Under the pieces are notes generated by a model. The model worked only from the letters and a program-made list of their open reading frames with translations, was not told the origin of the DNA and did no database searches. The position numbers and the translations under genes were made by a program. From the IMG/VR virus record IMGVR_UViG_3300042453_004632: a DNA stretch of 64,000 bases, one strand, 5' to 3'. This DNA comes from an uncultured virus (IMG/VR IMGVR_UViG_3300042453_004632) (taxonomy: Duplodnaviria > Heunggongvirae > Uroviricota > Caudoviricetes). Shown one piece after another: positions 14,147 through 32,722 of this stretch (position 1 is the stretch's first letter; each line of letters opens with the position of its first letter).

Positions 14147-14152
14147 ATTTTT

Positions 14153-15040
14153 CTAAATTAAATTAGATTTTTTGGCAAAATCATATAGAAAATAATTTAA
14201 TGATAATTCTTTCTTGTTCATTGACTTCAAATAGAAATGTGATTCAAGTATTAGTTTTTCATCATTCAATTTGGCCTCTGCCTCTTTCAAGTCTTCAAAG
14301 TACAAAGGGTATGTATCTCCCAAATATTCAATACAACCTGGCATTTTTTTGACAACAATCGGAACGTTGAGAGATATGCATTCGTTTATAAGATTGCAAG
14401 CGGCCACATCATATAAGTCCAAAAAAACAACCGACCTACATAGTAAATCTATGTAAAATTCTGGTTTCAAATACCCTATTTCTTCGGCAAATCCCTTTGA
14501 ATATTTTTTCATTTCTTGTAGATCAAACTCACAATGCCGAGGCTTTAGTATTATTTTTTTCTTGTTTGTGACTATTTGCAAAAAAGAATGATATTTTCTA
14601 AGTTGTTGACCTGCATGTACTACTTGCTCTCCACATTTCCATTCTTTTTTGTAATTCAAAATCGGATGATATAAGAAATTTACATTTGTTTTTAAATTTA
14701 AATCAATATATTTTTTTACATTTTTTGTGAATACAAATATTCCTTGGCAACTTTTAATTTTTTCTTTGAAGTACTTATTATCCTTTAATTTTGATATGGG
14801 TAAAATTTTATTTTTGTATTTATTAGGATATTCATTTTCGGGATAAGATATAGTGTTGTGTAAAAAACCAATCCATTTTCCTTCTATTGATTCTTCTTTT
14901 ATGGCTCTGTCCAACCATTCGTAGCAGTTTATTTTTGATCTAGAATCATGAAAAAATTTTAGTTTTTTAGAAATTTCACCCCAATTGCCTTCGGAAAGAT
15001 GATTGCTGGGTATAAAATTAATTTTCTTGGCTTTTATCAT
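14153..15040 (-). CDS. Putative GT-B-type glycosyltransferase
   Basis: WIGFLH, GQQLR, VFLDLYD.AACN.I.EC...NVPIVV, EYLG..YPLYF. Confidence 0.65.
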   Translation of the reverse strand: MIKAKKINFIPSNHLSEGNWGEISKKLKFFHDSRSKINCYEWLDRAIKEESIEGKWIGFLHNTISYPENEYPNKYKNKILPISKLKDNKYFKEKIKSCQGIFVFTKNVKKYIDLNLKTNVNFLYHPILNYKKEWKCGEQVVHAGQQLRKYHSFLQIVTNKKKIILKPRHCEFDLQEMKKYSKGFAEEIGYLKPEFYIDLLCRSVVFLDLYDVAACNLINECISLNVPIVVKKMPGCIEYLGDTYPLYFEDLKEAEAKLNDEKLILESHFYLKSMNKKELSLNYFLYDFAKKSNLI

Positions 15041-15909
15041 TTATTGTTTTTCAAGAGTTGGCTAACGGGAATCAATGGGGAGGGAAAATTTTCAATTCTT
15101 ATTATTTTTGAAGGACACATTGAGCAATGAAATATTTGTTTTTGCTCATAAAAATCTTTGATCTCCGAATAAGTTGCTCTAGGTTCTAGTGCCTGACCTT
15201 GCAGATTGCCATCTCTATACCCCAAATATGGCAACCATTTTTCGTTTAATTTGAATTTTTTGTCTTGCATTTGCAGGTAGGCAACATTTGGACACTTCCA
15301 TAATTTTCCCAAAAATATTTGACGACAAAATTTAACCGAACATTTGTTCCAACTTTCGCCGGGATTGTTGTCTTCAAAGGGCATCATTTCATTTCCAAAT
15401 CCCTTATATGTTTGTTTCCATGTATTTTTAAAACTGTTGGTCCAATTGACTTGAAGACGAGGATGGTTTTTTTGCCATTTTTTTACCAATTCTCTAACAG
15501 GATTTATTTTCTCTTCAAACTCTTTTGTATCATCATGCACCGAAAGTCTTAATTGAACATTGTGTTTTTCCATTATTCTGGGTAGATGTGGGTGATTTTT
15601 TAGAAAAAATCCATTTGTTATTATTCTTATTCTTGACCCGCCCCAGATTTTAGCAGATTTCTCGGTGATTTTTGTTAGTTCTTGATTCATGGTTGGCTCA
15701 CCACCCATTATGCTGAACCAGTTAGGTTTAATTCTTCTGCTCCAAGGTATGGTCCAATCTTCAAACTCTTGAAGACTGAGTTGCCCTTTGTGTCCATGAT
15801 TTGAATAATGGTTGCAACTCTGGCATGTCAAATTGCAAGAATGAGATACGTGAATTTCTATATTGCTTTCAAAGTCGGTTGGCACATATTTTTTATGAAG
15901 ATTTAGCAT
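15037..15909 (-). CDS. Radical SAM protein
   Basis: CNLTCQSC (CxxxCxxC), GGEP, ITNG; additional C-terminal cysteines. Confidence 0.9.
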   Translation of the reverse strand: MLNLHKKYVPTDFESNIEIHVSHSCNLTCQSCNHYSNHGHKGQLSLQEFEDWTIPWSRRIKPNWFSIMGGEPTMNQELTKITEKSAKIWGGSRIRIITNGFFLKNHPHLPRIMEKHNVQLRLSVHDDTKEFEEKINPVRELVKKWQKNHPRLQVNWTNSFKNTWKQTYKGFGNEMMPFEDNNPGESWNKCSVKFCRQIFLGKLWKCPNVAYLQMQDKKFKLNEKWLPYLGYRDGNLQGQALEPRATYSEIKDFYEQKQIFHCSMCPSKIIRIENFPSPLIPVSQLLKNNK

Positions 15910-15969
15910 ACTACATTATATAAGCCTTTGTTGGAAAACTCAATTCCTTAAGGGTATTGAATTCAAAAA

Positions 15970-16749
15970 ATGAAAAAAATCTTTAGGTGGACAATAGGTA
16001 ATTCCTCAAATTTAGGATTTGAGGTTCTTAGAAAATCCGTAAAATTTGCAAAAAAAAATTTTGAAGCACTTGGTTTTGATTTATATATTTGCTCTAATTC
16101 CAATGAAGTAAAAGTTAGTGAAATTTGCCAAGAATTTGAAATAAAACATATAGTTCAAAACAACGAAAACAATTTTTTTAAAAAATTCGGAGGATCTTTT
16201 TGGAAGCTGTGTCCTCCTAGGATTAACATAGATTCCTATGAAATTATTTGCGACAATGATGTTATTTTAAAAAAAATTCCAGAAGAAATTGAATTATTTT
16301 TAAAGTCAAATGTACCAATTATATGTGAAGAAAAAATTTTTTGTTTTGGAAAATATTCAAAATTCATAAAAAATCCATACAATAGTGGCATTTATGGATT
16401 GCCGCCTGGATTCAATTTTGAACAAAAAATAATTCAAAAATGGAAGGAAAAGGGATCTATTGAAAAGTTAAGAAGTTATAAAGATGAACAAGGATTGATT
16501 ATTCTTTGTCTTTTAGAATTTAATCCTATAAAGATTCCTTTAGACAAGGTGTGTTATTTATTTAAATTTGGATCTCCTGTAAAAGCAGATTATGAAAAGG
16601 TTTTGGAAGATAATTTTGAAAGTCAGATTTTACAAAATTTGATTTTTGAAAGGCCCAAAACTAAAAATAAAAGTATTTTTCACTTTATTGATTCAAACAA
16701 AATTGAAGATCATTTTTATTGGAATTCTTATAAAACAAAGTTTTTATAA
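15970..16749 (+). CDS. Putative glycosyltransferase (paralog of 13466..14146)
   Basis: RWTIG, WKLCPPRI, CDND, NSGIYGLPPGF, DEQG. Confidence 0.7.
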   Translation: MKKIFRWTIGNSSNLGFEVLRKSVKFAKKNFEALGFDLYICSNSNEVKVSEICQEFEIKHIVQNNENNFFKKFGGSFWKLCPPRINIDSYEIICDNDVILKKIPEEIELFLKSNVPIICEEKIFCFGKYSKFIKNPYNSGIYGLPPGFNFEQKIIQKWKEKGSIEKLRSYKDEQGLIILCLLEFNPIKIPLDKVCYLFKFGSPVKADYEKVLEDNFESQILQNLIFERPKTKNKSIFHFIDSNKIEDHFYWNSYKTKFL

Positions 16750-17573
16750 GAATTTTGAAAAGTTCTTTTACAATGTTGTCCATTTCCGTCCTTTCCGAAA
16801 AAACCTCCGAAAAAAACATTGTTTCCCAAATCTGACTTGTGTTCATAATCAAAATCTAAAAACTGATGGACTTTTTGCTTTTCTGCAAAAATTTGAACGG
16901 CCAGAGTTTGTATCATTGCATCTCCCCACCGATTAAAATAATATCCTCCGGTTAAATCAACCGCCTTCATAAAATTTTGAACATCTTTTCTCAACCAAAA
17001 TTCTGTTTTGGAAATATGAAAGTTATTGTAATATCCTACTTTGTTCCAGCAATTATTCTTGAAATTTTCAAATAAAAATTTGGGTTTTATATTTTTTTCA
17101 GACAAATATTTTAAGAAAAATTTTTCTAATTCTCTAACGCACATGTTGTGTTCAATTGTTTTTACTCTATAGGCATATTCTTTTTCGTTATCTTTCATGA
17201 AATTAAATATATCATATTCTATTTTTGATAAAATATAAGAATCATCATCTAATCTCATGTAATATTCATAATTTTTTATTAAATCAAAGATTGAATAAGA
17301 AAAAAATCTACACATGTGCCTGTAACCTATTGAATGTCCATACAAATCTACGGAGATTTTTTCTTTTTCAATAAAACTAGGAATTTTAAAATCAACTCTA
17401 TAGAATAAAATATTTTTATTTTTACAAACCTTCTTGAAATTGAAATTATTTTCATGAAATATTACAATCGGATAATTAAAATTTTTATTAAAGTTTAAAT
17501 GCAATAACTCTAAACTCTTATTTAATTTTTCTATTGTTCTATTATGAGATAGATATATAATTGCTGAATTCAT
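16728..17573 (-). CDS. GT15 (KRE2/MNT1-like) alpha-1,2-mannosyltransferase
   Basis: GYRHMCRFFS, YYMRLDDDS, YNNF, GG.Y..RWGDA. Confidence 0.88.
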   Translation of the reverse strand: MNSAIIYLSHNRTIEKLNKSLELLHLNFNKNFNYPIVIFHENNFNFKKVCKNKNILFYRVDFKIPSFIEKEKISVDLYGHSIGYRHMCRFFSYSIFDLIKNYEYYMRLDDDSYILSKIEYDIFNFMKDNEKEYAYRVKTIEHNMCVRELEKFFLKYLSEKNIKPKFLFENFKNNCWNKVGYYNNFHISKTEFWLRKDVQNFMKAVDLTGGYYFNRWGDAMIQTLAVQIFAEKQKVHQFLDFDYEHKSDLGNNVFFGGFFGKDGNGQHCKRTFQNSYKNFVL

Positions 17574-18244
17574 ATAAAGATTTTCTCAATGTATTTCAAT
17601 TTTTTTTCATAATAAGTTATTAGATTTTTATTTCTATAAATCATTTGTTTTGAAATAAAATAATTTATATTATTGCCTTCTTTTAAAATATTCTCAGGAA
17701 ATTTTTTATTTTTTATAATTAGTCCTTTTTTTTCAATTTTTACTATGGTATTTTTAAAATCTTTTACAATATCTTCATACTTAATAAAAATATAGTTTTT
17801 GACTTTGTTTGGCATATCTTCTAATAGAAATTTATTTTTAAAATGCCTCAATTCAAAAATATTTTTATATCTAAGGCCTGTGTAAATGTTTCTATCAAAT
17901 AAATTTTCTTTGCTCCAAGTTTTATATGAGTGCAAAGCATCGTTCACACTGAACCATTCGTCGTTCAAGAATTTGTTTATTTTTTCTTCTTCTGTTATAT
18001 TTTCTAAATATTTTAAGGGCAGATGGTGTTTTTTTATATAAAGTGAATTAATCCAATCAAATAAATTTCTTGTAATGCCGATAAACAAAACATCTTCGGA
18101 GTGACTTAGGTCATTAAATCCAAAGAAATGTTTCCATCCATATTTCCAAGTAATATCAACATTGAAATTAGATAAAATTAATTTTTCAATGTAATTTGTG
18201 CCAGAACATCTTTCTCCATATATAGTAAAATGATTAATCTTCAT
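17570..18244 (-). CDS. Sulfotransferase-like protein
   Basis: GERCSGTNY PAPS-binding-like loop, GWKH, R..WI.S, IKYED. Confidence 0.65.
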   Translation of the reverse strand: MKINHFTIYGERCSGTNYIEKLILSNFNVDITWKYGWKHFFGFNDLSHSEDVLFIGITRNLFDWINSLYIKKHHLPLKYLENITEEEKINKFLNDEWFSVNDALHSYKTWSKENLFDRNIYTGLRYKNIFELRHFKNKFLLEDMPNKVKNYIFIKYEDIVKDFKNTIVKIEKKGLIIKNKKFPENILKEGNNINYFISKQMIYRNKNLITYYEKKLKYIEKIFI

Positions 18245-18915
18245 ATCATTGTATTCTTCAAATGCGTTTTTAAAAAAACTATTTTCTCTTCCTTGCTCAT
18301 ACCAGGACAATGTATCAAAAAATCGCCTTTTTTATAAGTTGTTTTCACTGCGTGGAGATATTTTCTTGGCAATAACTTTATTCTTTGTCTAAAGTCTAGA
18401 TTGGTGTCATATAAATAATGAAATGCTGACTGCTCAAAAAATTTCCACTGATCAGGCGGTGCGTTAAATCCACCGTCGTCATTTATTCCACAAGATGGAT
18501 ATCCGTGATAAGGACTATCAATGAATTGTTTTTGATTAAACCAAACTTCCAAAAAATCTATTGACCATCTATCATTCTTGATTATGATTCCATTCGTTCC
18601 TATATGGCCCTCATGAGGAAGCGGCCCCGTCAGAATGTTGTAGTTCAAATTTTCTTTTATCAAATCCCTTATGTCAAAAGAATAGTTTAAGATTAGGGTG
18701 TCAGTATCAAGATATAAAATGTAGTCATACTCTGGCAGGTGTTTTTTGATTCCAAGTATTCTGCCCCAATGCTGTGTTCGGTCAGACAGATCGCTGAAGT
18801 TGTGAATAACAAAATCCATGTCATATTTTTTTGCATAATTTGATTTTGATTTTTTTGTTATTTGTAATATGTCCGAATAATTAATATTACAACAATCTAA
18901 AATTGCTATTTTCAT
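18241..18915 (-). CDS. GT34-like (galactosyl/mannosyl) transferase
   Basis: YAKKY, HWGRI, YLDTD DxD, NG.II, FEQSA; start at MKIAILD. Confidence 0.75.
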   Translation of the reverse strand: MKIAILDCCNINYSDILQITKKSKSNYAKKYDMDFVIHNFSDLSDRTQHWGRILGIKKHLPEYDYILYLDTDTLILNYSFDIRDLIKENLNYNILTGPLPHEGHIGTNGIIIKNDRWSIDFLEVWFNQKQFIDSPYHGYPSCGINDDGGFNAPPDQWKFFEQSAFHYLYDTNLDFRQRIKLLPRKYLHAVKTTYKKGDFLIHCPGMSKEEKIVFLKTHLKNTMI

Positions 18916-18988
18916 GATTTTGTTTCTAACAAGGCAACGCCTCAATTCTATCATAGATAGATAGAACAACAATACAAGGAAATTAGAA

Positions 18989-19675
18989 GTGGAGAATAAA
19001 ATAAAAAATAATTTGTTCACATGTTGGCACACCAACAATCTTCCACCTTTGATGAAAAAAAATATTGAATTAAATATTGAAAAAAACAAAGAAATTATTT
19101 TCAATATTTATGATCAAAAAAAATGTGAAGATTTCATAAGAAAAAATTTCAATAAAAAAGTATTAAAGGCCTATAGACAATTAGTGCCTTGTTCATATAA
19201 ATCTGACTTGTGGAGATTTTGCATACTTTATCTACTTGGTGGTATTTATATTGACATAAAGTACAATTGTGTAGAAGGATTCAAGTTCACAGATATTTTA
19301 AATGATGAATATTTTGTAGAAGAATCAAAATATTGGAAGGGAGTAAATGAAAGGATTTACACTGGCCTTATATGTGTATGTCCGAGAAATGAAATAATGA
19401 ATTGCTGTATAGAAAGAATAATCAGCAATGTTGAATCAAATTATTACGGAAAATGTAGCTTGGACCCAACAGGTCCTGGAGTGTTGGGGAGTTGTGTTCC
19501 AAAGAATGTAAAAAAACAATTAAATTTTGAAGATCCCAAAATATTCTATGATAAAAGATTAATTTTGAATTACTACAACGGCTATAGATTAGAACAAAAA
19601 AAATTTCAAAAACTTCCTCATTATGAAATACTATGGCAACAAAATAAAATTTATAGTAAAGTAAAATTTATATGA
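18989..19675 (+). CDS. GT32/Och1-like glycosyltransferase (DxD sugar-binding)
   Basis: YKSDLWRFCILYLLGGIYIDI, TGPGVLG. Confidence 0.88.
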   Translation: MENKIKNNLFTCWHTNNLPPLMKKNIELNIEKNKEIIFNIYDQKKCEDFIRKNFNKKVLKAYRQLVPCSYKSDLWRFCILYLLGGIYIDIKYNCVEGFKFTDILNDEYFVEESKYWKGVNERIYTGLICVCPRNEIMNCCIERIISNVESNYYGKCSLDPTGPGVLGSCVPKNVKKQLNFEDPKIFYDKRLILNYYNGYRLEQKKFQKLPHYEILWQQNKIYSKVKFI

Positions 19676-20265
19676 ATCTAATGCAAAATAGGTTTTCAAA
19701 AATAAACATTGAAACCAATCAATTGAATGGCCTTAATGATTTGATCAAAGATTTTTTGAATAAATCAAGTATTGTTTGTGAAATTGGATCTTTCAACGGA
19801 GTTTCTACTGAATTATTTGCCAATAAATGCAAAAAAGTTTTTAGTATTGATGTTAATTGCACAAAAAGATTAAAAGAAATAATTGATAAATATGATATAG
19901 ATTATTTTAGAAAAGAAAGTATAGAGGCCAGCACCATTTTTGAAGACAATTTCTTTGATTGCGTTTATCTAGACAGCAATCACACTTACGAGCATGTTTG
20001 TGAAGAAATTAGGGTGTGGTGGCCCAAAGTAAAACACAAAGGAATACTCGCGGGTCACGATTATCTGTCAGATAAAATGATAGAATATATTTCAAAATTA
20101 AAAATAGATTTATCTTATAATTGGACAACAGATCCTATTAAAAACAAAATAAAAAAAGGCCAAGGAGTAAAGCATGCAGTCAATGTTTTTTTTAAAAACA
20201 GAAAGATTTATCTTTACAAAGATTCTAGTTGGGCCAAAATAAAATATTGTAAATTAATACTATGA
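19672..20265 (+). CDS. SAM methyltransferase (Methyltransf_24-like)
   Basis: EIGSFNGVS, VYLDSNHTYE, WWPKVK.GILAGHDY. Confidence 0.88.
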   Translation: MNLMQNRFSKINIETNQLNGLNDLIKDFLNKSSIVCEIGSFNGVSTELFANKCKKVFSIDVNCTKRLKEIIDKYDIDYFRKESIEASTIFEDNFFDCVYLDSNHTYEHVCEEIRVWWPKVKHKGILAGHDYLSDKMIEYISKLKIDLSYNWTTDPIKNKIKKGQGVKHAVNVFFKNRKIYLYKDSSWAKIKYCKLIL

Positions 20266-21092
20266 AAAATTTATTGATATGCATATCTTTTTACTACAAA
20301 AAAGAAAGATATAAATATCTCAATGCCTTAATAAAAAATTTTCTTTCTTATGATGTTGATTTGGATATAATAATTGATACAAACAACAAAGATGCAATTA
20401 ATCTAATTTACGAAGAGTTTTCAAAAGAAAAAATTAAAATTTTTGTTCATGATAATTTAGAAAATAATTTTTTTCTGACTTGGAAACATAGACAACACTT
20501 CAAAAATAATATATTAAAATATAAAAATTTTTATTACACAGAAGACGATATTTATTTGTCTTTCAAAAACTATAAAAATTATATTCTTGAATTTTCAAGA
20601 CTATGGCCAAATTATATTCCTTCTTTTGTCAGAATAGAATCTTATGAAAAAGATTTATATCATACGGATTCTTATGTTAAAACTTTTATTGACAAAAATG
20701 ATATTGTGAAAATACAAGATCAAATATATGTTTCCATACATAATTCTTATCATGGATTTTGGATAATGCCACAAGAAGCACTTTTAAAATGTTTGAATGA
20801 AAAATTTTGTCAACCAATTCATTCGGAGAAAACTAGAGAAATTGCGGCATCTTTTGGTTTACAAGTAATAAACTTGAAAAGAAATAAATCCAAATTATTT
20901 GTGCACATAAATAATTTATTGAATTCAAATGACATAAAGAAGGAAGGATTGTTGAAATTAGAAAAATACAAATACGAAATATCAGACACCTCCTACAGTT
21001 TTCATTTACCAAACAATTACATACATGATAAAAAATACAATTTAGCAAAAATAAAAATACAAGATGTGGTAAAGTTTAAAAAAATATTATGA
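20262..21092 (+). CDS. Putative glycosyltransferase
   Basis: LTWKHR, YYTEDDI, P.FVR.E, HLPNNY. Confidence 0.6.
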   Translation: MKNLLICISFYYKKERYKYLNALIKNFLSYDVDLDIIIDTNNKDAINLIYEEFSKEKIKIFVHDNLENNFFLTWKHRQHFKNNILKYKNFYYTEDDIYLSFKNYKNYILEFSRLWPNYIPSFVRIESYEKDLYHTDSYVKTFIDKNDIVKIQDQIYVSIHNSYHGFWIMPQEALLKCLNEKFCQPIHSEKTREIAASFGLQVINLKRNKSKLFVHINNLLNSNDIKKEGLLKLEKYKYEISDTSYSFHLPNNYIHDKKYNLAKIKIQDVVKFKKIL

Positions 21093-21652
21093 AGTATTTA
21101 GTTTACGGATTGCAGAGTAGTGGAGCCACTCTTTTTTCTTATTTTCTATCACAAAATAGGAATACTGTAGGGATCCCCGATTTATGGGCAGATTATTGGT
21201 GCCCTGATTGCTCCCATGTAAAGACAGACGTGGTGATCAAATGTGTTGTAACCAAAGGGTGTCCTCTTGAAGGCCATGTTGAAAGATACAAACCCGATGT
21301 GAAGATTTTGTTTTTGAGGAACCTCAAGGACAATAAACAAAGGCTTCTTCAAAAAAGATGGAAAAATCACAATGGAACTGTTGATGATAAAATTAAAATA
21401 ATAGAAAAAATAGATAAGAGAATTTTTGATTTTGTAATATTGTATGAAAATTTTATATGTAAAAAAATACCAAGCGAATTCTCAAAAGATAATTATTTAT
21501 TTAATAGAGGAAAGAAAGAAATAGTTCGTTTTAATTTTGAAAATTTCAAGTGGTCTGAAGAAAATATAAATAAAAAATGGGGGTTCGGAGAAATTCATTT
21601 TTCTAAAAATGATACCATAAAGCTCGCCAGTAGAACAAAAGTTTTTTTATAG
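21089..21652 (+). CDS. Sulfotransferase-like protein
   Basis: GLQSSGAT loop, ILFLR, ILYE. Confidence 0.55.
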   Translation: MKYLVYGLQSSGATLFSYFLSQNRNTVGIPDLWADYWCPDCSHVKTDVVIKCVVTKGCPLEGHVERYKPDVKILFLRNLKDNKQRLLQKRWKNHNGTVDDKIKIIEKIDKRIFDFVILYENFICKKIPSEFSKDNYLFNRGKKEIVRFNFENFKWSEENINKKWGFGEIHFSKNDTIKLASRTKVFL

Positions 21653-21698
21653 TCAAAATAATAATAAATTAGCAACTATTTAGTTAGTTAAATAACCT

Positions 21699-22046
21699 AT
21701 GAAAAACCTGTGCCTCAAGAACGAGAAGCAGATGGGCCTCTTCAACGGGATGCAGGGGGATGTGGCCATGATGTACGACGGGGACGTGTTCGCCTTTAAG
21801 GCCGACGGGTTCGTGGAGGAGGTCCCGTTTGAGAGGAACACCTTCAACCAAGTAAAGTACGAGTTTGAGCACGACGGCCCCGTTCCCTTCGATTACGCCT
21901 ACGCCATCACCGCCCACAGGGCACAAGGGTCCGAGTACGACAGGGTCATGGTCTTGGAACAGCGTTGTGACCTGTGGGACCACAAGCGGTGGGCCTACAC
22001 CGCGCCTTCTAGAGCGAAAGAGCTACTTTATTGGTGCGAGACTTAA
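21699..22046 (+). pseudogene. C-terminal fragment of a RecD/Dda helicase (diverged second copy of about 12130..12479)
   Basis: CLKN...GLFNGMQG, FNQVKYEF, PFDYAYAITAHRAQGSEY, DLWDHKRWAYTA; no Walker A. Confidence 0.88.
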
Positions 22047-22048
22047 TC

Positions 22049-23380
22049 ATGAATATACTTTTAATCATAGCGGACGATCTTGGCTGGTCAGATGTGGGAT
22101 TCCATAATGGAGACATTCACACTCCAAATTTAGACAAGATTGCCGAAGAAAACATTCAATTTGACCAGTTCTATACACAGCCCGTCTGCACTGCTACTAG
22201 GGTTTCCATATACACGGGAGACTACCCTTTCAGGCACGGATTTGATGGGGTTATATGGCCATGGTCTGATTTTGGCATGTATAAGAAAGACAATCTTCCT
22301 AGAACCCTTGCAAATAATGGTTATGACACATACCTTGTGGGAAAGTGGAATGTAGGTCACTCTAGAAAAAAATACCTACCTAATTCAATTGGATTTGGAT
22401 ATCACTACGGCGGCCACACCGGCGCCATGGATCACTGGGAACACACTCAGTTTGGCGTGCACGATTTTCACGAGAACGGCAAGCCGATTTATCCCCAGGG
22501 TCACTCCACGGATTTGTACGCAGACAAGGTTTCGGAAATACTACGAGGAAGAAGCAAGGACAAACCATTTTTTATGTGCTTAGCGTTGAACGCTCCGCAT
22601 GTCCCTCTTCAGACTCATAATGAGTTCGTCAAAAAATACAATTTTGGCAACCAGAATAGGAATATTTTTGCCGGGATGGTCACCCACATGGACAAAAAGA
22701 TAGGAGACCTAATCCAAACCCTAAAGGACTTGGGACAATACGACGACACCATCATTTGGTTCACTTCTGATAACGGCGGTTGGCTTGGCGACTTTGGAGG
22801 GACGAACTTTCCTCTCAAGGATGGGAAGATCAGTTTCTACGAAGGCGGCATACGCGTTGTGAACATCGCTAAAATGCCGATTTCCGAAAAAAGAATTAGC
22901 AAAGTATGCCACGCTTCCGACATTTTTCCAACATTGTGCGACTTGGTCGGAGTAGATCGTCCGAGTGTTGATGGAGTTTCTGTACTTTTACCTGGGAAAG
23001 ATCGAGAGTTGGCTCATCACTACAGAAGAATTTCTGAGGACAAGTTTGTGGGCTGTATCCGTTCAGGTGACTGGAAGTACATGACATATAAAAATGAAGA
23101 ATTGTATAACATAGCCGAGGATCCGGTTGAAAGTAAAAATCTCGCATCCCAAGAGACAGAAATCTTGAGAACATTGAAAGTCAGACTTAAGTCTTTTGAA
23201 TCTATCTATAAAAAAGAAAAGTTTGACTTGGCTTGGTTTCCGCCGCACGGACCGCCACCAGGATTCAAGATGCCAAAGTGTTGGTCGCCAAGCAAAAATT
23301 TAACTAGAATAAAGATGCTTCAAACGCAAGACACGCGCGAAGATCTTTCAATGAGAGAGGCTTTAGGGCTGTATTCTTGA
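22049..23380 (+). CDS. Arylsulfatase (Cys-type)
   Basis: ADDLGWSD, TPNLD, CTATR (CxAxR formylglycine motif), GKW, PHVP, SDNG, YEGGIRV. Confidence 0.92.
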   Translation: MNILLIIADDLGWSDVGFHNGDIHTPNLDKIAEENIQFDQFYTQPVCTATRVSIYTGDYPFRHGFDGVIWPWSDFGMYKKDNLPRTLANNGYDTYLVGKWNVGHSRKKYLPNSIGFGYHYGGHTGAMDHWEHTQFGVHDFHENGKPIYPQGHSTDLYADKVSEILRGRSKDKPFFMCLALNAPHVPLQTHNEFVKKYNFGNQNRNIFAGMVTHMDKKIGDLIQTLKDLGQYDDTIIWFTSDNGGWLGDFGGTNFPLKDGKISFYEGGIRVVNIAKMPISEKRISKVCHASDIFPTLCDLVGVDRPSVDGVSVLLPGKDRELAHHYRRISEDKFVGCIRSGDWKYMTYKNEELYNIAEDPVESKNLASQETEILRTLKVRLKSFESIYKKEKFDLAWFPPHGPPPGFKMPKCWSPSKNLTRIKMLQTQDTREDLSMREALGLYS

Positions 23381-23930: not shown

Positions 23931-24051
23931 CATCATTATGCTCTACTCTATGCTGTATGAGAATACGACTTGTCGTGGCTTAATTAAAACTTTGTCTTAG
24001 ACTTTATGATTGTTTTCTAAGAAGATAGTCTAAATTTGACTATATTAGCAA

Positions 24052-24933
24052 GTGAGAGAAAAACTTGAAAAAATAAGAGATTTAGTCAACGAATTGATTG
24101 CTTCTTTGGATGAGCATTCTTTGGTAAAAGAAGGGCCAAAATTGAAGAACCATTCGGAGTTTGGACTTCTGAAGGGCTTGCTTGAATCAAGCAAATGGCC
24201 GGAGGCTGTATTTAGTGCACAAATAGCGGACGAGAGTTCGGAATCTGACAAGATGGAACGAGCAGAAGGCATATCGGACATTCTCCTTCCTCCCTTTTTG
24301 GACAAGAAGTTCCTAGACTTCGGCTGTGGTGAAGGGCACGTAGCAAAGCACGTATCCAAAGAAGCCGCATTTTCAGTGGGCTATGACATAATTCCAAGAG
24401 GCCCATCTTGGGAGAATAAAAATGAAAAACTTTTGTTGACTACTGATTTTGAGAAAGTCAAAAACGAAGGGCCATATGACATAATCTTAATCTATGATGT
24501 TTTAGATCATTCGCAAGAAAGTCCTGAAGAATTACTTCTTAAGGCCAAATCTGTATTGTCTCAAGAGGGCAAAATTTATCTTCGTTGTCACCCCTGGACC
24601 GGGAGGCACGGGGGGCACGCCTACAAGAAGATAAACAAGGCTTTCGTTCACCTTGTTTTTGAAGAAAAGGAGTTGTCCGAGCTTGGGGTTGTCTTGGACT
24701 ATAATAAAAAAATTTTGCGTCCAATAAACACGTACAACAAGGCCATAGAGGATGCGGGTCTCAAAAGGTCCGAACCCGAGGTTGACACCCAAGAGGTTGA
24801 AGCTTTTTTTGAGGAGAACTCTCTGATCAGGAACAGGATACTCAATTCGCTCGGCCTTGCGACATGGACATCAGACACGCCCGCCTTTCAGATGTCCCAA
24901 TGTTTCTTGGATTACGTTCTTGAACAAAAATAG
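24052..24933 (+). CDS. Class I SAM-dependent methyltransferase (paralog of 12515..13381)
   Basis: FLDFGCGEG, YDIILIYDVLDH, RCHPWTGRHGGH. Confidence 0.88.
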   Translation: MREKLEKIRDLVNELIASLDEHSLVKEGPKLKNHSEFGLLKGLLESSKWPEAVFSAQIADESSESDKMERAEGISDILLPPFLDKKFLDFGCGEGHVAKHVSKEAAFSVGYDIIPRGPSWENKNEKLLLTTDFEKVKNEGPYDIILIYDVLDHSQESPEELLLKAKSVLSQEGKIYLRCHPWTGRHGGHAYKKINKAFVHLVFEEKELSELGVVLDYNKKILRPINTYNKAIEDAGLKRSEPEVDTQEVEAFFEENSLIRNRILNSLGLATWTSDTPAFQMSQCFLDYVLEQK

Positions 24934-25042
24934 TTATTAAGATCAGAGAAAAGTCTTTGGCAACGCGCCATATCAGAATGCTTTGTGTTCTGGTGTGAAT
25001 AAGTCTTGCGGTTGCTATTCGGCCGAACAAGTAAGCAAAAGG

Positions 25043-25652
25043 ATGTCTAAAGGCTGGAACAAGGTGTTCACAAAAGAATACTTGATAAAAGAACACAAGA
25101 ATAGAAGCGAATGACCCTTTCTACGCACTCGCTGGACAAAAAGTTGAGATGCTTTTCGTCAAGGACTTTGCACACATCAAAAATGGACGTTCTTACTGGA
25201 ATTGTGTGTGTGACTGTGGCAAAGAGAAGGTTGTCTGCGGACATTCAATTGTAAGAAGAAAAGTGGTTTCTTGCGGGTGTTGGAACAAAAAGAAAAATTG
25301 GCAGGGCGTGGGCGATCTCGGCAAGACTTATTGGTCTAGGATCGTAAAGCACGCTTCGGAAAGAAATCTTGAATTTTCCATTGGCATGGAATACGCCTGG
25401 AAATTATTCAAGAAACAAAAAGGAAAGTGTGCCCTTTCTGGAGTGGACATTGCCCTAAATCCCGCTTGGAGCGCAAACACAAAGATGGGCCAAAGCAAAC
25501 ACACGGCCTCCCTCGACAGAATAGACTCTTCAAAGGGCTATGTGAAGGGCAACATTCAATGGGTGCACAAGGTCATAAATAAGATGAAGTCGAGCTTTTG
25601 GAGCCCGACTTCATCAATTTGCGTTCTGAAATCTCTGAATATAGAAACTAGT
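25043..25652 (+). pseudogene. Frameshifted homing-endonuclease-like gene (HNH/EndoVII-like)
   Basis: WNCVCDCG..SCGC; GKCALSG; ASLDRIDSSKGYVKGNIQWV; ATG 25043 is out of frame with the core; C-terminus continues in another frame (LLEPDFINL). Confidence 0.72.
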
Positions 25653-25866
25653 AGAGCCTCTGGGAGCACACGGTAGCCGCCGCCACCCAAGCCCCGGACA
25701 TGCCACTGCACATCATGTTGGGCTTACGGCAGTCGGCCATGAAATACTTCCATCCGCCGCAGAGCTTGTTGATTCTGCTGTTTGGACGAGCGCAACGCTG
25801 AGTCAGCGTGGTGAGAACACCGACGGTTTCTCCGGCCGCCGGCGGTTTACGACAATAAAAAGCCAT
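25648..25866 (-). CDS. Small Cys-rich hypothetical protein
   Basis: AGGAGG RBS before MAFYCRKPP; 6 Cys in 72 aa. Confidence 0.7.
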   Translation of the reverse strand: MAFYCRKPPAAGETVGVLTTLTQRCARPNSRINKLCGGWKYFMADCRKPNMMCSGMSGAWVAAATVCSQRLY

Positions 25867-25946
25867 GGTTAAATCCTCCTTGTGGAAAAGAACATGTTCC
25901 ATCATTATGTATCGTTCTTTTCACAGCAAGGAACAAGACGACGGAA

Positions 25947-26762
25947 TCAATTTTTTCCGCCGCCGAGGCTCTTGATGTCTCTTATACAGAGTTCCCTGTT
26001 CTCTTCCATGACCTTCTTGGAGTCGGGCTCGTGCTCCCACACGTAGTTCACAGTCGCTCCTCCATGATGCTTGATCCAAGCCTTGGTTGATATTCCTTGG
26101 AGGAGTCCGTGTTTTCTCATTCTAAAAGCCAGTTCTTCGTCCTCGTACCAGGCGTAGGGATAGGACTTTATGAATCCACCGATATATTTGAACAAGTCTC
26201 TGTTGCACATCGCACAGAACAACGGCAAGGCCTCCTTGTCCAATACTATGTCCTTTTCTCCCTTGTCCAACATTGAAGCTTTCGCGGCCATGCATTCTCC
26301 CGGATTGTTGGATCGGGCCGAGACCATTTTGACCGGTGTTCCCTCCTGTTTCCATTTGAGCAGTGATTGACCCATGTGAATCATGAAATTCGCATCCTCG
26401 ACCACACAGTCGGAATGCATGAAAAGGACCCAAGGCAGGCTCGTGGATTCAAACCCGAGTTTCAAGGCTCCCCCGAAGCCCAATCGTTTCTCGGATCTGA
26501 TGTATCCCACTTGAGGCTTGAATCCGGCGGGGGTCGTTTTTTGGAATTGGCGCGTCATTTCCTCGCCGAAATTCTTATTGTCCGAGCAGTCGTCAATGAG
26601 GGTGATCTGGTAGGGATTGCTCTTCACCGACAGGAGTATTGTCCTGATTAGTTCCGACACCTTCTCGTACTGGGCGTGGAAAGGTATGAGGATGTCAACT
26701 TGGGACCTGGAGAAGGGCTTGAACTCCATCATCCTAGATTTTTGTATTCTTTCGTTCATCAT
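25947..26762 (-). CDS. GT2 family glycosyltransferase
   Basis: VDILIPF, LIDDCS, LGFGGA, FMHSD, GGF...WYEDEE. Confidence 0.85.
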   Translation of the reverse strand: MMNERIQKSRMMEFKPFSRSQVDILIPFHAQYEKVSELIRTILLSVKSNPYQITLIDDCSDNKNFGEEMTRQFQKTTPAGFKPQVGYIRSEKRLGFGGALKLGFESTSLPWVLFMHSDCVVEDANFMIHMGQSLLKWKQEGTPVKMVSARSNNPGECMAAKASMLDKGEKDIVLDKEALPLFCAMCNRDLFKYIGGFIKSYPYAWYEDEELAFRMRKHGLLQGISTKAWIKHHGGATVNYVWEHEPDSKKVMEENRELCIRDIKSLGGGKN

Positions 26763-26783
26763 GATATTAGAGTTTATTCAAAG

Positions 26784-26817
26784 AAAAAGGCCCGCTCCTT
26801 TTCAGGAGCGGGCCTTT
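26784..26817 (-). terminator. Rho-independent terminator
   Basis: AAAGGCCCGCTCCT-TTTC-AGGAGCGGGCCTTT inverted repeat with U-tract on the minus strand. Confidence 0.85.
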
Positions 26818-26844
26818 CGTCTGATTCTCTTGCCTTGGACTTGA

Positions 26845-27558
26845 TCAGGCGATCTTGCGAGCCCTGACCGCCTTCGGATTGAGCTTCCAACGCTTGCTGG
26901 ACTCGTCGTGAAGGATCACCGCCACCTTCCCGTTGTATCCCGGGTGGGACTTCTTTTGGGAAAGGGTATGGAGTGCCTGGTACACATTCTGGGCGATTCC
27001 AAGGTTGCCCTTGTTGCCCTTGTACTCGTACCCGGCCTCAATGACTCTCTCCGTCACTTCCTTCAGCTTCAATCCCTCCTTGCCGGACTTTTTCAGGATC
27101 ACGGCACAGAGGGCGGGCATCGGAAGACCTTTCATTTCTCCGACTTGGACCTTGGCACGATCCTTGGTGGTCTTTGCCTTCGCGGCCTTGGCTGGCTTCT
27201 TTCCTTCGTGCATCTTCTTGCGGATCGTAGAGACCAAGGAGGGCTCAATCTTGACCTTGTGGGTCTTCTCAAGGCTCTCTATGAGGTCCTTGTTCTTGAT
27301 CTCCATTCCATGCTTGCGGAAGTGCTCTCGGATGAGGTCCGATCTGTTGATCCCGCCCTTGCGCCGTCCGGGACGAAGCTCCTCGGACGCCTTGACCTCA
27401 ACTTTGACCTCACCGTCGGTCTCCGCCACCTCGGGCTTCGCGGCCTCAACCCCCACAACAGCCTCCTCGCCAGCCTTCTCCATGAAACCACGGATCATGC
27501 TGTTGAGTCCATCAAGCGATTCCTTGATCTTCTCAAGAGTCTTCAAAGCAGTGCTCAT
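26845..27558 (-). CDS. Basic DNA-binding protein (N-terminal NRSxxIRE domain plus winged-HTH)
   Basis: INRSDLIREHF..VSTIR; GLKLKEVTERVIEAGY wHTH-like segment. Confidence 0.7.
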   Translation of the reverse strand: MSTALKTLEKIKESLDGLNSMIRGFMEKAGEEAVVGVEAAKPEVAETDGEVKVEVKASEELRPGRRKGGINRSDLIREHFRKHGMEIKNKDLIESLEKTHKVKIEPSLVSTIRKKMHEGKKPAKAAKAKTTKDRAKVQVGEMKGLPMPALCAVILKKSGKEGLKLKEVTERVIEAGYEYKGNKGNLGIAQNVYQALHTLSQKKSHPGYNGKVAVILHDESSKRWKLNPKAVRARKIA

Positions 27559-27674
27559 TTTCAAACCCTTCTCTCTCTCCGGCCCCTTGTTTTAATTCAG
27601 GTTGCCGATCCGGGCCAGGACCGACTTCCCGTTTGCTCCGAACACTCCTTTGTTGAATCGTCCATCCACAATTC

Positions 27675-27702
27675 ACTCTACGCTCTACGGTTCGTTTGTC
27701 AA
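27675..27702 (-). promoter_or_regulatory. Sigma70-type promoter TTGACA-16-TAGAGT
   Basis: Consensus match upstream of 27558. Confidence 0.55.
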
Positions 27703-27971
27703 TTTTTTTCTTGCTACATTTAAGCACATTTTTGACGTAAGTTATTGTTTTGAAAAGACTTGTGTCTATCAAAAAAATCCTAAATTTTCCTATTGACGGC
27801 CTATTTTTTCATGGAACCGGGCAGATTTCCATCGTCTTTCTTCTTCTTTGGTCTTGCGAAAATGGAAAAAATGCATGCCAAGGGACTATATTAGGTTGCG
27901 GCTGGTCATTGGAATTGACCAGCCTTCGGATATCTGAGAAAATACGGGCAAGGAATTGAAAGGAGACTAAA

Positions 27972-28160
27972 ATGCTGGTTCTGAGTAGAAAGAAAGATGA
28001 GACCATCATCATGCGCGTTCCCGGTCACGAGGACATCAAGTTGACCGTGGTGAGGATTGACAATCTGAACAAGGTCAGGATTGGGGTAGAAGCGGACAAG
28101 GACGTGGTGATTCTTAGATCCGAACTGGATTCTAAGAAAGAAGTTCCCAGCATCAAATAA
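27972..28160 (+). CDS. csrA: Carbon storage regulator CsrA
   Basis: MLVLSRKKDETI...KVRIGVEA.KDV.ILRSEL; AGGAG RBS. Confidence 0.92.
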   Translation: MLVLSRKKDETIIMRVPGHEDIKLTVVRIDNLNKVRIGVEADKDVVILRSELDSKKEVPSIK

Positions 28161-28200
28161 TCTCACTTTACCTCGTTTGTTATCCGTCTAGAATGAGCGC

Positions 28201-28842
28201 ATGGCTCTTCTATATCCTCCACATCCCGGTTTGAAAATTCCGGAAAACAAGTTGGAGCGGTATGAACAGACCGGAAAATGGATCGCCCAGAGAAAATTCA
28301 ACGGAACCCACGTTTTGTTGTATATCTCTCCCGAAAGGCAGGTGACGATTCTCACTCGTCACGGCACTTCGCCGAAGTTGTTTTCTCTGACCGATTCACA
28401 CAAAAACCAGATTCTTTCGTTGAATCTTGAAGAGGGCAAGGATTATTGGCTTGATGGCGAGTTATTGGATCACAAGACAAAATCCGAAAAATACAAGGGC
28501 AAAATTGTTCTTTTTGATGTCCTTCATGTCGGAAAATACCTGATCAATTCCCCGGATCAGGTCGGACGTTTGAGGATGCTTTCTGAAATTTGCCGAAATC
28601 CAGTGGAATTGGAGCCGAATTTCGGAATCGCACTGTACGTGACGCCAGACATCTGGATGGCAGAAACATGGACTGATGATTTTGATCGGCATTTCAATGA
28701 ATTTCTCCATCTGGACGAGATTGAGGGACTGGTCCTCCGCAGGTCCAAGTCTGTGCTCGACAACTTCGGCCAGAAGGAATACGATGTTCCTTGGATGGTT
28801 AGGTGTCGCAAGCCCCATCCGGGAGGCACCTATAATTTTTGA
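28201..28842 (+). CDS. Ligase-family nucleotidyltransferase domain lacking an OB domain
   Basis: QRKFNG motif I, LDGEL, LFDVL, EGLVLR. Confidence 0.75.
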   Translation: MALLYPPHPGLKIPENKLERYEQTGKWIAQRKFNGTHVLLYISPERQVTILTRHGTSPKLFSLTDSHKNQILSLNLEEGKDYWLDGELLDHKTKSEKYKGKIVLFDVLHVGKYLINSPDQVGRLRMLSEICRNPVELEPNFGIALYVTPDIWMAETWTDDFDRHFNEFLHLDEIEGLVLRRSKSVLDNFGQKEYDVPWMVRCRKPHPGGTYNF

Positions 28843-28966
28843 TCGTGGGGGTTGACAGACTTCAAACCCACGATATGATTCGCACTTTATCCCCTCCAAG
28901 GACGGACGGATTCTTCTGCCCTAGAGGGATTTTTTTTGGCTTCTTTTTTTGACACGGAGGCTCATT

Positions 28967-30370
28967 ATGAAGAGCGTTGATAGGATTTCTGAAATCTTCG
29001 GTGACGATGTCCAGCATCTCCATGGCAACCTTTTCAGGGCCAAGAGATCAAAGATTCGCCTCGCCAAGCCCGGACTGAGCGTGGACGACGGCAAGTTGGT
29101 CTATGGCAACCCCAGGTGGTTTGTCAATAAGGATGGAAATCCTGAGGCCAAGGGCGTTGAGAAGGGCAAGATGGAGGAGCTGAGCAACTCCATCCAGGAC
29201 GAGGGTCTTGAGAACCCGATTCGTCTGCGGGTCAAGGAAAACGGCAAGAAGAGCCATCTAGAGGTCGTGAACGGAGAGCGGCGATTCCGCTGTCTTGATG
29301 ACCTTTGCGAAAAGAATGTTCCTTGTTTTCATCCTGAAACCGGCGAGCAGACCCCTGCCGGCGAGTTGTATGAGTGGGTTGATTGCCGCATTGAATTCAT
29401 GGATGACGAGATGGCTCTCCGTTGTGCCCTCAAGCCCAACGAGACAAGCGAAATCATCGGCGACCTGGCCAGCATCAACGTGGTCAAGACCCTCCGTCAG
29501 TCGGGTTTTGACGATCAGGAAATCTTGAAGGCAACTGGCAAGTCCATCAGTTGGCTCCGCGAGACCGAGAAGATCATCGGTCTTGACGATGTCTGCTTGG
29601 GTCACTTTGAGAACGAAAAGATCAACCGGCAGGTCGCCCTGCACTTGGCTTCCATCAAGGATGCCGAGGAGCGGATCGCTCTTTTGGAAAAGATCAACGA
29701 GTCTGCCATGGCCCGCCATGCCGAAAAGGTAGCCCAGGTTGACCGGAAGATTTCCAACTCTAGCATCGAGCAGGAATGCCAGGAAACGGCCGCCCACCTT
29801 GCTGAGAAAGAGGGCGACGACGATGCTGCCGAGGAGCACAAGGAAAAGGCCGCCAAGGCCAAGAAAAGGGCGGAAGACGGGGTCAAGGAGCGGAAGAAAC
29901 TCTCCCAAAAGGGCTCCGCCGCCACTTCCAAGGATGTTGAAAATGTAACCAAGACGGCGAAGCCGCTGAGTCACAACAAGATTCAGTCGGTCTATATGGA
30001 TCTGATTGAGCAGATCATCGCCGGGGAGGGGTTGGACGAGAACGGCGACTCGCTCGGCATAAACCTGGAGATGCTGGCGGCCGTCTCCGGAGTTTTGTCG
30101 GCCATTATGGAGGGCAACCGTGAGGCCATGGAGGTCTTGACGGAACACTGCCCGCTCGTGATGGACGACGAGGAGTTCTCCGAAATCGCAGACGAGTCGG
30201 ATGACGTTGACCCGGACGACGACTCCGACGACGACTCCGACGACGACGATGATGATGAATACGAGGGCGACGACGAATCCCGCGTTGACGATTCGTACGA
30301 GCCCTCCGAGGATGATGAAAAGGAATTCCAAGGCGTCCGCGACATAGTCGAAGAAGACTACGACGACTGA
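28967..30370 (+). CDS. ParB-like protein with coiled coil and acidic tail
   Basis: NPR, ELSNSIQDEGLENPI, VVNGERRFR; HTH ILKATGKSISW; D/E-rich C-terminus. Confidence 0.8.
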   Translation: MKSVDRISEIFGDDVQHLHGNLFRAKRSKIRLAKPGLSVDDGKLVYGNPRWFVNKDGNPEAKGVEKGKMEELSNSIQDEGLENPIRLRVKENGKKSHLEVVNGERRFRCLDDLCEKNVPCFHPETGEQTPAGELYEWVDCRIEFMDDEMALRCALKPNETSEIIGDLASINVVKTLRQSGFDDQEILKATGKSISWLRETEKIIGLDDVCLGHFENEKINRQVALHLASIKDAEERIALLEKINESAMARHAEKVAQVDRKISNSSIEQECQETAAHLAEKEGDDDAAEEHKEKAAKAKKRAEDGVKERKKLSQKGSAATSKDVENVTKTAKPLSHNKIQSVYMDLIEQIIAGEGLDENGDSLGINLEMLAAVSGVLSAIMEGNREAMEVLTEHCPLVMDDEEFSEIADESDDVDPDDDSDDDSDDDDDDEYEGDDESRVDDSYEPSEDDEKEFQGVRDIVEEDYDD

Positions 30371-30391
30371 TTTCTTTTCAATCTGGTTCAG

Positions 30392-30434
30392 AGAGGGCCA
30401 CCGGGGAAAACCTCGGTGGCCCTCTTTATTTTTC
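30392..30434 (+). terminator. Rho-independent terminator
   Basis: AGAGGGCCACCGGGG-AAAA-CCTCGGTGGCCCTCT followed by T-run. Confidence 0.85.
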
Positions 30435-30527
30435 TATGGCCCAAAAAGAGGCGTGCCGCTTTACTGAAAGTGCTTCGGGCACTATAATCACAGGTGTCGC
30501 AGGGGGCCTTTCAACAAGGAGTTCATC

Positions 30528-31763
30528 GTGGCCAAGTCAAGCCGGTCGGTTGAAAAAAAGTGTGATTTTTGTGGCGGCTCTTCCAAGCAGACCGGCCCAA
30601 TGGTGGAGGGCGGATTTCAAAAAAAGGTCTTCATCTGCGGCGAGTGCCTTAAGACCGCGAATTCAATGATGTCCAAGTCGGACTCGGTTGAATTCAAGCT
30701 CCAGAGCCCCAGAGAAATCGTCCGCAGACTTGACGAGTACATTTGCGGCCAAGAGGATGCCAAACGCCAACTCGCGGTCAGCGTCTACAACCACTATGTC
30801 CGGATTATGGACGGAGAGTGGCGCCAACAAATCAAAGACAAGGATTTGATGGAGACGGACATAGACAAGAACAACGTGCTCATGGTGGGCCCCACAGGTT
30901 CCGGAAAAACGCTGATCGCGTCCACTCTCGCCAAGATACTTGATGTCCCGTTCGCCATAGGTGACGCCACCACGGTCACCGAGGCTGGTTATGTGGGTGA
31001 GGATGTTGAAAATCTGCTTTTGAGACTCCTCCAGGCGGCCGATATGGATGTTGCCAAGGCCCAGATGGGGATTCTTTACATAGACGAAATTGACAAGATC
31101 GGGAGGTCAAACAAAAACGTCTCAATCACCCGTGACGTATCGGGCGAAGGGGTCCAGCAGGCTCTTTTGAAGATGCTTGAGGGCACCGTGGCTAATCTGC
31201 CGCCCCAAGGCGGCAGGAAGCACCCAGAGCAGCAGTACATCCAGATTGACACTTCAAACATTCTCTTCATCTGCGGGGGGACGTTTGTCGGCCTTGACCA
31301 GATCGTCCGCCGCCGCCTCGGTCAGAAAAAAATCGGATTTGGAGGAGAGAACAAAAACATTGAACTCAACAGCAACGATTTGCTCTCGAAGTTCCAGACC
31401 GAGGACCTCATTGAGTTCGGCATGATTCCCGAGTTTGTGGGAAGGCTCCCGGTACAGACGTTCGTGCGGGAACTTTCCGAGAATGAACTTTGCCACGTTC
31501 TGACCGAGCCGAAGAACGCGCTGCTCAAGCAGTACAAGAAGCAATTCTTGTATTCCGGCGTGAATCTTGAATTCACGCCCGAGGCCGTCAGAGAAATTGC
31601 ACGGATCGCCGCCAAGGAAAAAACCGGTGCCCGTGCCCTGAGGGGGGTAATTTCAAAAATCATGAACCCCATCACGTTTGATCTGGTAGATTACAAGAAT
31701 TGCAAAATTGTGATTGACGACAAGATCGTCAGAGGCGAAAAGACCGTTTCCAAGGCCGCATGA
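30528..31763 (+). CDS. clpX: ATP-dependent Clp protease ATPase subunit ClpX
   Basis: CDFCG/ICGEC zinc finger, [51 protein letters not shown] loop, GARALR. Confidence 0.97.
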
Positions 31764-31771
31764 GGTGAAAA

Positions 31772-32032
31772 ATGAAACTCCCCCTGATATCGTACGAAGC
31801 ATCCCAAGCCATAGCCAAGGCTGTCAAGGAACGCCACCCCGTTTCCAGCCTTGAAGAACTCGGAATTGGCCAGAGGATGATAAATCTATTTCAGTCAAAT
31901 GGAATCCACGACATGAACGATCTCATGCACAAAAAAAGACAGGATTTAATGGGAATGCAAAATTTCGGGGAAAAGCAACTTTTTGTTCTTTTTGAGGCGC
32001 TTTCAAAGTATCATAATCTTTGTGATCTTTGA
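31772..32032 (+). CDS. Stand-alone RNA polymerase alpha-CTD-like protein
   Basis: LEELGI..RM.N.F..NGI..MNDL...DLMGMQNFGEK. Confidence 0.8.
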   Translation: MKLPLISYEASQAIAKAVKERHPVSSLEELGIGQRMINLFQSNGIHDMNDLMHKKRQDLMGMQNFGEKQLFVLFEALSKYHNLCDL

Positions 32033-32722
32033 GTAGCCATAGCGAATTGACATTTCCTTCAATCTTTTTTTGATGTCTGGATTTGTTATTTCTGTCAATA
32101 TCCATTCGCGAGAAAGATTCGCCGCCGAATTGCATTCGTTATTGTCGTAAGCCTCTCCTCGGAATCCGAAAAAATCTTTCACTTTTTCGGGTCCGTCTTC
32201 TATTCGGTGGAACAATACCACCCTACCGCTGTTTTCTATCATCTCGTTCCACTTGATGTAAAAAAGACAAGCCCGGTCCAGTTGGGACTTTTCTTGTGAG
32301 AGTTCTGGGAGATTGTCATATATGAACTTCTCGTAGTCAAAATGGCATGGGTTGTCTCCGAAATGGGTCGGCACGTCGTTCAGAAATTGACTGAAACCAT
32401 GGCCGATCAAAGACCCAATCACCTTGATGGGATTTCTGACGACATGAATCACTTTTGCGTTCAAATCCTTGAGGAAGGGAGCCGCCATGTAGCTGGATTC
32501 GGCCTCCGTATCCATCTCGTAGTCGGACAGGTTTTCGCCCCTTGAAATTCTGCTGCTTATGGCGGGTTCTCCCCCGGCCAGAACTTTTTTGGCGTGATCC
32601 AATCCCTTGGGGGTGAAAATGGCCTCGTGCGTACACGGCGTGCCCATGCTTGTAAGAAGATTCGCCATGAACAATGTGCCGCACCTGCCCGTGCCTGTGA
32701 CTAAGTACTTTAGATTTATCAC
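32003..32722 (-). CDS. Sulfotransferase-like protein
   Basis: VTGTGRCGT, HE, IHVVRNP..VI.S, RIED. Confidence 0.7.
   Translation of the reverse strand: MINLKYLVTGTGRCGTLFMANLLTSMGTPCTHEAIFTPKGLDHAKKVLAGGEPAISSRISRGENLSDYEMDTEAESSYMAAPFLKDLNAKVIHVVRNPIKVIGSLIGHGFSQFLNDVPTHFGDNPCHFDYEKFIYDNLPELSQEKSQLDRACLFYIKWNEMIENSGRVVLFHRIEDGPEKVKDFFGFRGEAYDNNECNSAANLSREWILTEITNPDIKKRLKEMSIRYGYSKITKIMIL

Follow-up and report, generated by a model that had tools for sequence, protein, structure and literature searches.

A shared C-terminal hydrophobic tag on unrelated glycan-tailoring enzymes of large phages

Several described systems use the end of a protein as an address. PDZ-binding motifs are short, are counted from the free C-terminus and have a hydrophobic last residue. 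Encapsulin and microcompartment cargo peptides, like capsid anchors of the T4 Hoc type, use a terminal peptide or module to address unrelated proteins to one shell, and bacterial glycosyltransferases can have basic, hydrophobic C-terminal anchors. The gp45 clamp tails of phage T4 are hydrophobic C-terminal peptides on unrelated phage proteins. Protein ends can also serve as degradation signals: five degron classes are listed in PMC12723719, and the MuA degron RRKKAI, of the ClpX class C-motif 2, places a hydrophobic end behind basic residues (PMC8138137). Here we describe a C-terminal tag, hereafter the tail, in which two bulky hydrophobic residues, commonly preceded by a basic one, end unrelated glycan-tailoring enzymes of an uncultured member of the Caudoviricetes and its relatives. 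The DNA analyzed, referred to as the window, comprises the first 64,000 nucleotides of the 74,963-base virus record IMGVR_UViG_3300042453_004632; its genes include those for ClpX, two sigma-like proteins, ParB, ligases, UvdE and RecD.

Most tails lie in an AT-rich block of the window (13466-21652), which holds 11 genes with a GC content of 0.23-0.35, compared with about 0.50 in the surroundings. Using a hand-curated set of 100 genes, we found that the motif K.{0,3}[ILFVM][ILF]$ ends 9/11 block proteins, versus 3.3% of internal positions in the same proteins (P 7.8e-13). This is the comparison of ends with interiors proposed alongside the original prediction of a shared tail, and all nine block ends quoted in that prediction were found at their genes. 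The two misses were 13466, whose end YKNRF is half a fit, and the radical SAM protein 15037, which ends LKNNK. The plainer rule that the last two residues be hydrophobic was also significant (9/11 block proteins versus 7.1% of internal positions, P 1.7e-9), and thus the result survives the motif having been drawn post hoc. Among the other genes of the 75-kb contig, 1/76 ended in the motif. Of 13 glycan-type genes elsewhere, the single match was 32003, whose predicted end TKIMIL is present and fits. Two further outside examples did not hold up: KKVKFDL (8210) breaks the two-hydrophobic rule, with relatives ending AKVTFDI, AKATFNI and ERMEGGL, and the RIKML of the sulfatase sits 16 residues before the protein end. 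The block genes and 32003 are as follows.

13466..14146, minus strand: GT8-like paralogue of 15970; end YKNRF (half fit); 29/42 distinct homologue ends are two hydrophobic residues
14153..15040, minus strand: protein without convincing family match; tail KKSNLI; relatives end DLYKKI, PIIKL and IKTVLL
15037..15909, minus strand: radical SAM protein; without tail, end LKNNK; 0/4 homologue ends match
15970..16749, plus strand: GT-A fold, structure predicted to be GT8-like; tail YKTKFL; 29/41 distinct homologue ends are two hydrophobic residues
16728..17573, minus strand: GT15 (KRE2/MNT1-type) glycosyltransferase; tail YKNFVL
17570..18244, minus strand: protein without convincing family match; tail IEKIFI; ATGA overlap with the next gene
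18241..18912, minus strand: GT34 glycosyltransferase; tail LKNTMI
18989..19675, plus strand: GT32-type (Gly_transf_sug) glycosyltransferase; tail SKVKFI
19672..20265, plus strand: Methyltransf_24 methyltransferase; tail YCKLIL
20262..21092, plus strand: protein without convincing family match; tail KFKKIL
21089..21652, plus strand: protein without convincing family match; tail RTKVFL; N-terminus weakly sulfotransferase-like (hhalign probability 21%)
32003..32722, minus strand: sulfotransferase-fold protein in DNA of normal GC; tail TKIMIL

An enzyme type could be assigned to six tail carriers (GT15, GT34, GT32, Methyltransf_24, the GT8-like fold of 15970 and the sulfotransferase fold of 32003). 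For these, the claim that the tail sits on unrelated glycan-modifying enzymes stands; it does not extend to 14153, 17570, 20262 and 21089, for which family searches gave no convincing match. The model of 32003 has a pLDDT of 92.6, and every match listed by Foldseek (best E 1e-6) is a sulfotransferase, in agreement with a P-loop sulfotransferase structure; its last nine residues are its least confident part (pLDDT 66 versus 92.6 overall). Assignment of 17570 and 21089 as sulfotransferases was also considered, and profile comparison gave no confirmation. PDB sequence searches for the GT8-like family returned chance matches only. Longer fusion proteins with a GT8-like domain (L268:4366, plus strand, 842 aa; L250; L278:6001) have one tail, which closes the whole protein (SPKSII, LVKKIV). 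Where the converging genes 15970 and 16728 meet, they share 22 bases within a near-palindrome whose arms are 11 bases long (window 16723-16750), and a tail is encoded there on both strands.

The tail was also enriched in relatives, which were gathered via the 32003 gene; contigs of 436-572 kb are among them, and gp23, gp32 and RecA are encoded in their loci. Genes at 146 loci were called with a simple open reading frame filter, reduced at 85% identity to 1958 sequences and sorted into families; the family count omits eleven cellular-genome loci and keeps two phage-looking contigs from metagenome-assembled genomes (L137, L140). We counted pattern A ([KR].{0,3} followed by two of ILFVM) and pattern B (only the hydrophobic pair). 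In 29 Pfam-assigned sugar or tailoring families, A ended 71/373 proteins and B 113/373, compared with 4/110 and 11/110 in 22 other families (Fisher 2e-5 for A and 6e-6 for B, values that are optimistic because family members are related and their independence is overstated). A second set comprised 147 proteins from 12 of 27 loci, three of whose contigs had also yielded earlier loci. There, pattern B ended 13/33 transferases, 3/11 precursor enzymes, 1/5 radical SAM or sulfatase proteins, 2/16 other annotated proteins and 28/82 proteins without a Pfam match, with an internal frequency of 6-9%. Replication and regulatory proteins had been noted as mostly tail-free in the original prediction; for replication proteins the counts were 0/8 for ligase-like proteins, 0/6 for gp32, 0/5 for RecA and 0/9 for ParB. 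We conclude that the C-terminal tag on megaphage tailoring enzymes is real.

Within large genomes the tail is concentrated in islands, for example at 200-240 kb of G001, where A ends 10/47 genes; genome-wide enrichment was weak in three large genomes (28/447, 19/388 and 24/540, versus about 3% internally). In the closest relative, the methyltransferase and RecD genes are the same but adjoin an island of partly different content, where B ends 5/8 of the larger genes. Pattern A occurs in only 4/117 GT15 database homologues, several of which are named as eukaryotic; these four include the closest homologue (68%), whose end sequence, LLKIL, is different. Neither of two archaeal GT8-like homologues carries a tail, nor do any of the 13 genes of their two loci. 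Sulfotransferase homologues in cellular-genome loci showed B in 1/5. This distribution is the one expected if enzymes acquire the tail on joining an island, a presumed step.

The ends might instead be a by-product of AT-rich DNA, of ATGA coupling or of overlapping convergent stops. The block has these features: besides its low GC, 5/9 tail genes show ATGA coupling and two show a convergent overlap. Among relatives, convergent genes bear the tail slightly more often (82/165) than non-convergent ones (66/169). However, off-frame peptides before stops in the block showed the motif in 35/642 cases and A-ending codons in 25/915, which adds to the low internal frequency. The context of the relatives' genes was assessed in 334 members of 18 families, picked partly for carrying tails. 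From low to high GC, B occurred in 24/43, 39/81, 47/117 and 38/92, the last bin being GC >0.44, and it was no more frequent in ATGA-coupled (11/34) than in uncoupled same-strand genes (38/93). Tail genes use all three stops (59, 56 and 33), and their final two residues are encoded by 15 and 16 different codons with a third-position GC of 0.44, not below the gene mean of 0.38. In 109 sulfotransferase homologues, in which a linker of 3-11 residues follows a conserved Y-x-Y, position -2 is hydrophobic in 83% and position -1 in 60%; since -2 is hydrophobic despite the variable linker length, the motif keeps its place relative to the protein end rather than to the domain. The presence of the tail at all GC levels, with all stops and with any overlap, in register with the C-terminus, indicates a protein-level signal. 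These data largely refute an origin in DNA composition or gene overlap, to which we now give almost no credence. They also dispose of the earlier caveat that AT-rich codons might account for the tail. The original interpretation is upheld in that the tail is protein-level, anchored to the C-terminus, rare on core genes and unexplained by AT-rich codons; the recruitment to a scaffold, capsid or compartment that it proposed is a candidate role, and two of its outside examples, 8210 and the sulfatase, do not fit.

What might such a tail do? The reading we favor, to which we give an even chance, is that the tail is a docking label for one shared, putative partner that would bring interchangeable enzymes together at the place of glycan synthesis, likely on virion parts. 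The last two side chains and the terminal carboxyl would insert into a pocket of this common partner, with the tail exposed on a flexible linker. The peptide would presumably be under selection, and a swappable enzyme that entered the island by gene transfer would gain a tail. PDZ ligands offer a parallel in their length, their position and their hydrophobic last residue. They differ in that here the last two residues are both hydrophobic and -3 is variable; moreover, the PDZ domain (PF13180) matched 0/5 related records, with a control that matched 14/14 and host PDZ proteins not searched.

A second possibility is that the tail marks the enzymes for degradation from the C-terminus and keeps them short-lived; its reader would be the phage ClpX together with ClpP, or else Lon, FtsH or Prc of the host. 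The ClpX gene is the following.

30528..31763, plus strand: phage ClpX, above the NCBIfam cut-off; end SKAA; candidate reader if the tail is a degradation signal

This gene adjoins the island region, lying 240 bp from the sulfotransferase gene 32003. ClpX is present in 4/5 relatives and ClpP-family genes in 3/4 large relatives, with none in the 75-kb fragment, so that both would be available. Like C-motif 2, the tail has basic residues followed by a nonpolar C-terminus, and 9/11 block proteins match at the sequence level. In addition, hydrophobic C-termini are depleted in bacteria and lower reporter levels in Mycoplasma (PMC7246954). Unlike the Ala-Ile of MuA, however, the last two residues here are both bulky (I, L, F, M, V). 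ClpX itself ends Ala-Ala in this phage, in 5/5 family members and in the three large relatives read; the sigma-like protein (36601-37551) also ends Ala-Ala, and a putative DNA-binding or regulator family (26845-27564) ends KIA, KVA or TAA, classical-looking ClpX degrons. Small-residue ends thus exist apart from the bulky tail, which lowers the probability of a degradation signal without removing it. Neither an S41 protease nor, as noted above, a PDZ protease of phage origin was found in the five records (S41, 0/5, G000-G004), and a degradation signal offers no evident reason for the preference for glycan enzymes. We therefore view this possibility as distinctly less probable than docking, at about one chance in four.

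The composition of the tail also raises the possibility that a basic-hydrophobic end is a weak membrane anchor, bringing the enzymes to lipid-linked or surface host glycans. The last ten residues of tail carriers have a net charge of +1 to +3, and none of these proteins has a 19-residue window with hydropathy >1.6. Nevertheless, two to three hydrophobic residues are few for an anchor, the strict spacing from the terminal carboxyl is easier to reconcile with a pocket than with a bilayer, and the tail-less radical SAM and GT2 proteins have a similar end charge; we consider anchoring improbable.

Still less probable, in our estimation, is a role in DNA hypermodification, in which the tail would tether DNA-modifying enzymes to a sliding clamp in the manner of T4-type clamp tails. 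DNA can be a target of phage glycosyltransferases (PMC12619734), and a C5 DNA methylase is encoded near the island. Yet acidic residues are depleted at -3 of the tail (1%), in contrast to the T4 tails, and the enzymes are of GT15, GT32, GT34 and sulfotransferase types. The replication proteins counted above are without tails. The four largest related records encode a DnaE-type polymerase and match neither gp45 nor the beta-clamp; across all five, gp45 (PF09116) gave 0/5 with a weak control and the beta-clamp (PF02767) 0/5, with the host clamp not searched. A search for TET/JBP dioxygenases also gave 0/5, with zero control genomes matched. Judged by sequence, the tail appears to work like other C-terminal address peptides; PDZ and clamp readers had no match in the phage records searched, and its likeness to ClpX C-motif 2 is confined to the sequence level.

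A further lead toward a docking site comes from a small gene outside the block and its neighbor.

25648..25866, minus strand: small Cys-rich protein, 72 residues; end VCSQRLY; a lead only, with a candidate place in the system
25947..26762, minus strand: conserved GT2-like enzyme, directly upstream of the Cys-rich gene; without tail (1/26 homologue ends)

The Cys-rich gene is present in 5/5 records searched and corresponds to a module of about 45-75 residues, with 200 representatives at E<=0.001. Its typical end is ...VCxQ[RK]L[FY]. Of 150 representatives, 85 stop precisely at this point, 21 run on by 1-2 residues, 19 run on by at least 3 and 25 were unparsed; RLF or KLF is the end in 56/125 parsed cases. 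In longer homologues the module is C-terminal in 20/21, behind RCC1 and DUF5122 propellers and others (for example L225:8597-10114, L236:7934-10123 and L242:7235-10639); in capping varied propeller proteins it resembles a Hoc-type module in layout. The tail-less GT2 shares a locus with the Cys-rich gene in 16/26 loci, some of them redundant, and a major capsid gene is found in 3/26. Pfam, the Atlas and a PDB sequence search gave zero genuine matches for the module (chance matches only in PDB), AlphaFold modeled the protein too poorly for use (pLDDT 47), and a complex prediction for the major capsid protein, GT2 and Cys-rich protein of G001 scored 0.00 with the partner fold uncertain, which is no evidence either way. 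The module appears to have the anatomy of a virion anchor, with an end that resembles the enzyme tail; it hints at a virion-linked docking site, and it is possibly a virion anchor or a glycan carrier. Unlike cargo peptides and Hoc anchors, the enzyme tail has just 3-6 residues and its shell partner is putative. Virion glycosylation by mycobacteriophage glycosyltransferases is summarized in PMC12619734, and the phage-encoded enzymes here may likewise decorate virions; that paper also concerns a different large-phage lineage with glycosyltransferases, the word 'C-terminal' is absent from its accessible text, no shared tail is named there, and many more enzyme families are present here. In a bolder extension of the docking reading, which we think unlikely, a virion or scaffold pocket would read [KR]-hydrophobic-hydrophobic-COOH both on swappable enzymes and on the Cys-rich anchor module with its adhesin-like domains, forming a glycan assembly line of bacterial scale with one docking code.

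Several observations weigh against the docking reading. Only about 30-45% of the relatives' tailoring enzymes carry the tail, and several conserved ones almost never do (1/26 in the GT2 25947 family and 1/21 in the 42441 family), as the original prediction had allowed in stating that not all glycosyltransferases would be tailed. Basic residues show no more than moderate enrichment (19-25% at -3 to -7, versus 12%). A restriction of the tag to acceptor-modifying enzymes was favored by the first set, in which few precursor enzymes were tailed (Glf 1/13, epimerase 0/6, DegT 0/5), and failed in the second, given its 3/11 sugar-precursor enzymes. A phage-encoded reader was not found in G001-G004 in searches for PDZ, S41, gp45, beta-clamp and Hsp70, the last also giving no match in G000. 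Virion glycosylation in this lineage is a supposition. As for the Cys-rich module, it is N-terminal in one FN3 protein, it runs at least 3 residues past L-F in 19/125 cases, including G002, whose enzymes keep their tails, and its RLF-type end may be simply the module core.

The locus is found in lakes: lake metagenomes from several studies hold near-identical DNA, and both borders of the AT-rich block are spanned, with zero differences, by other lake-run contigs (run X4, records 10 and 14). No RNA holder was among the listed holders of near-identical DNA, and scans of viral contigs with the single proteins 15970 and 16728 gave no match. Flanking the island are second copies of two genes, RecD (partial) and the SAM methyltransferase (window 11400-13405, 21699-22046 and 24052-24933). 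Compared with the closest relative, L222, the segment methyltransferase-13466-14153-15970 is inverted relative to RecD, which suggests a rearrangement at the island site. Large repeat proteins, likely virion surface fibers, are encoded at window 295-4335 and at 62427-64517, the latter continuing past the window; one type combines DUF285 and PKD, and the other has Gly-Asn-Ala-Thr-Phe repeats and a Cys-rich beginning. A gene past the window end resembles what we take to be a planctomycete DUF1559 gene. L003, L072, L073, L089 and L109 share a conserved core block of strikingly alternating gene orientation, which contains GT2-like genes, up to 4 SAM methyltransferase paralogues, a sulfotransferase, GT8-like genes and a 200-residue protein that is VWA-like by eye. 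One relative encodes an Acb1-like anti-CBASS phosphodiesterase (G001 434387-434908; L169:16387-16905; Pfam E 1e-8).

Literature searches, excluding subscription papers and supplements, found no published description of the tail, and the tag is apparently undescribed. The targets of many glycosyltransferases in large phages are unknown, and a shared label shows that they are treated collectively. The tail allows island genes that lack annotation to be assigned to the pathway, as 28/82 proteins without a Pfam match end in two hydrophobic residues, and it provides a short bait peptide for a partner search. If the tail were a degradation signal, it would mean phage-programmed turnover of a whole enzyme class. 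If it is a docking label, it would be a minimal enzyme-recruiting code, useful for glyco-engineering; and should a virion or scaffold pocket indeed read both the enzymes and the Cys-rich module, a transferred enzyme would join the line merely by evolving a three-residue end.

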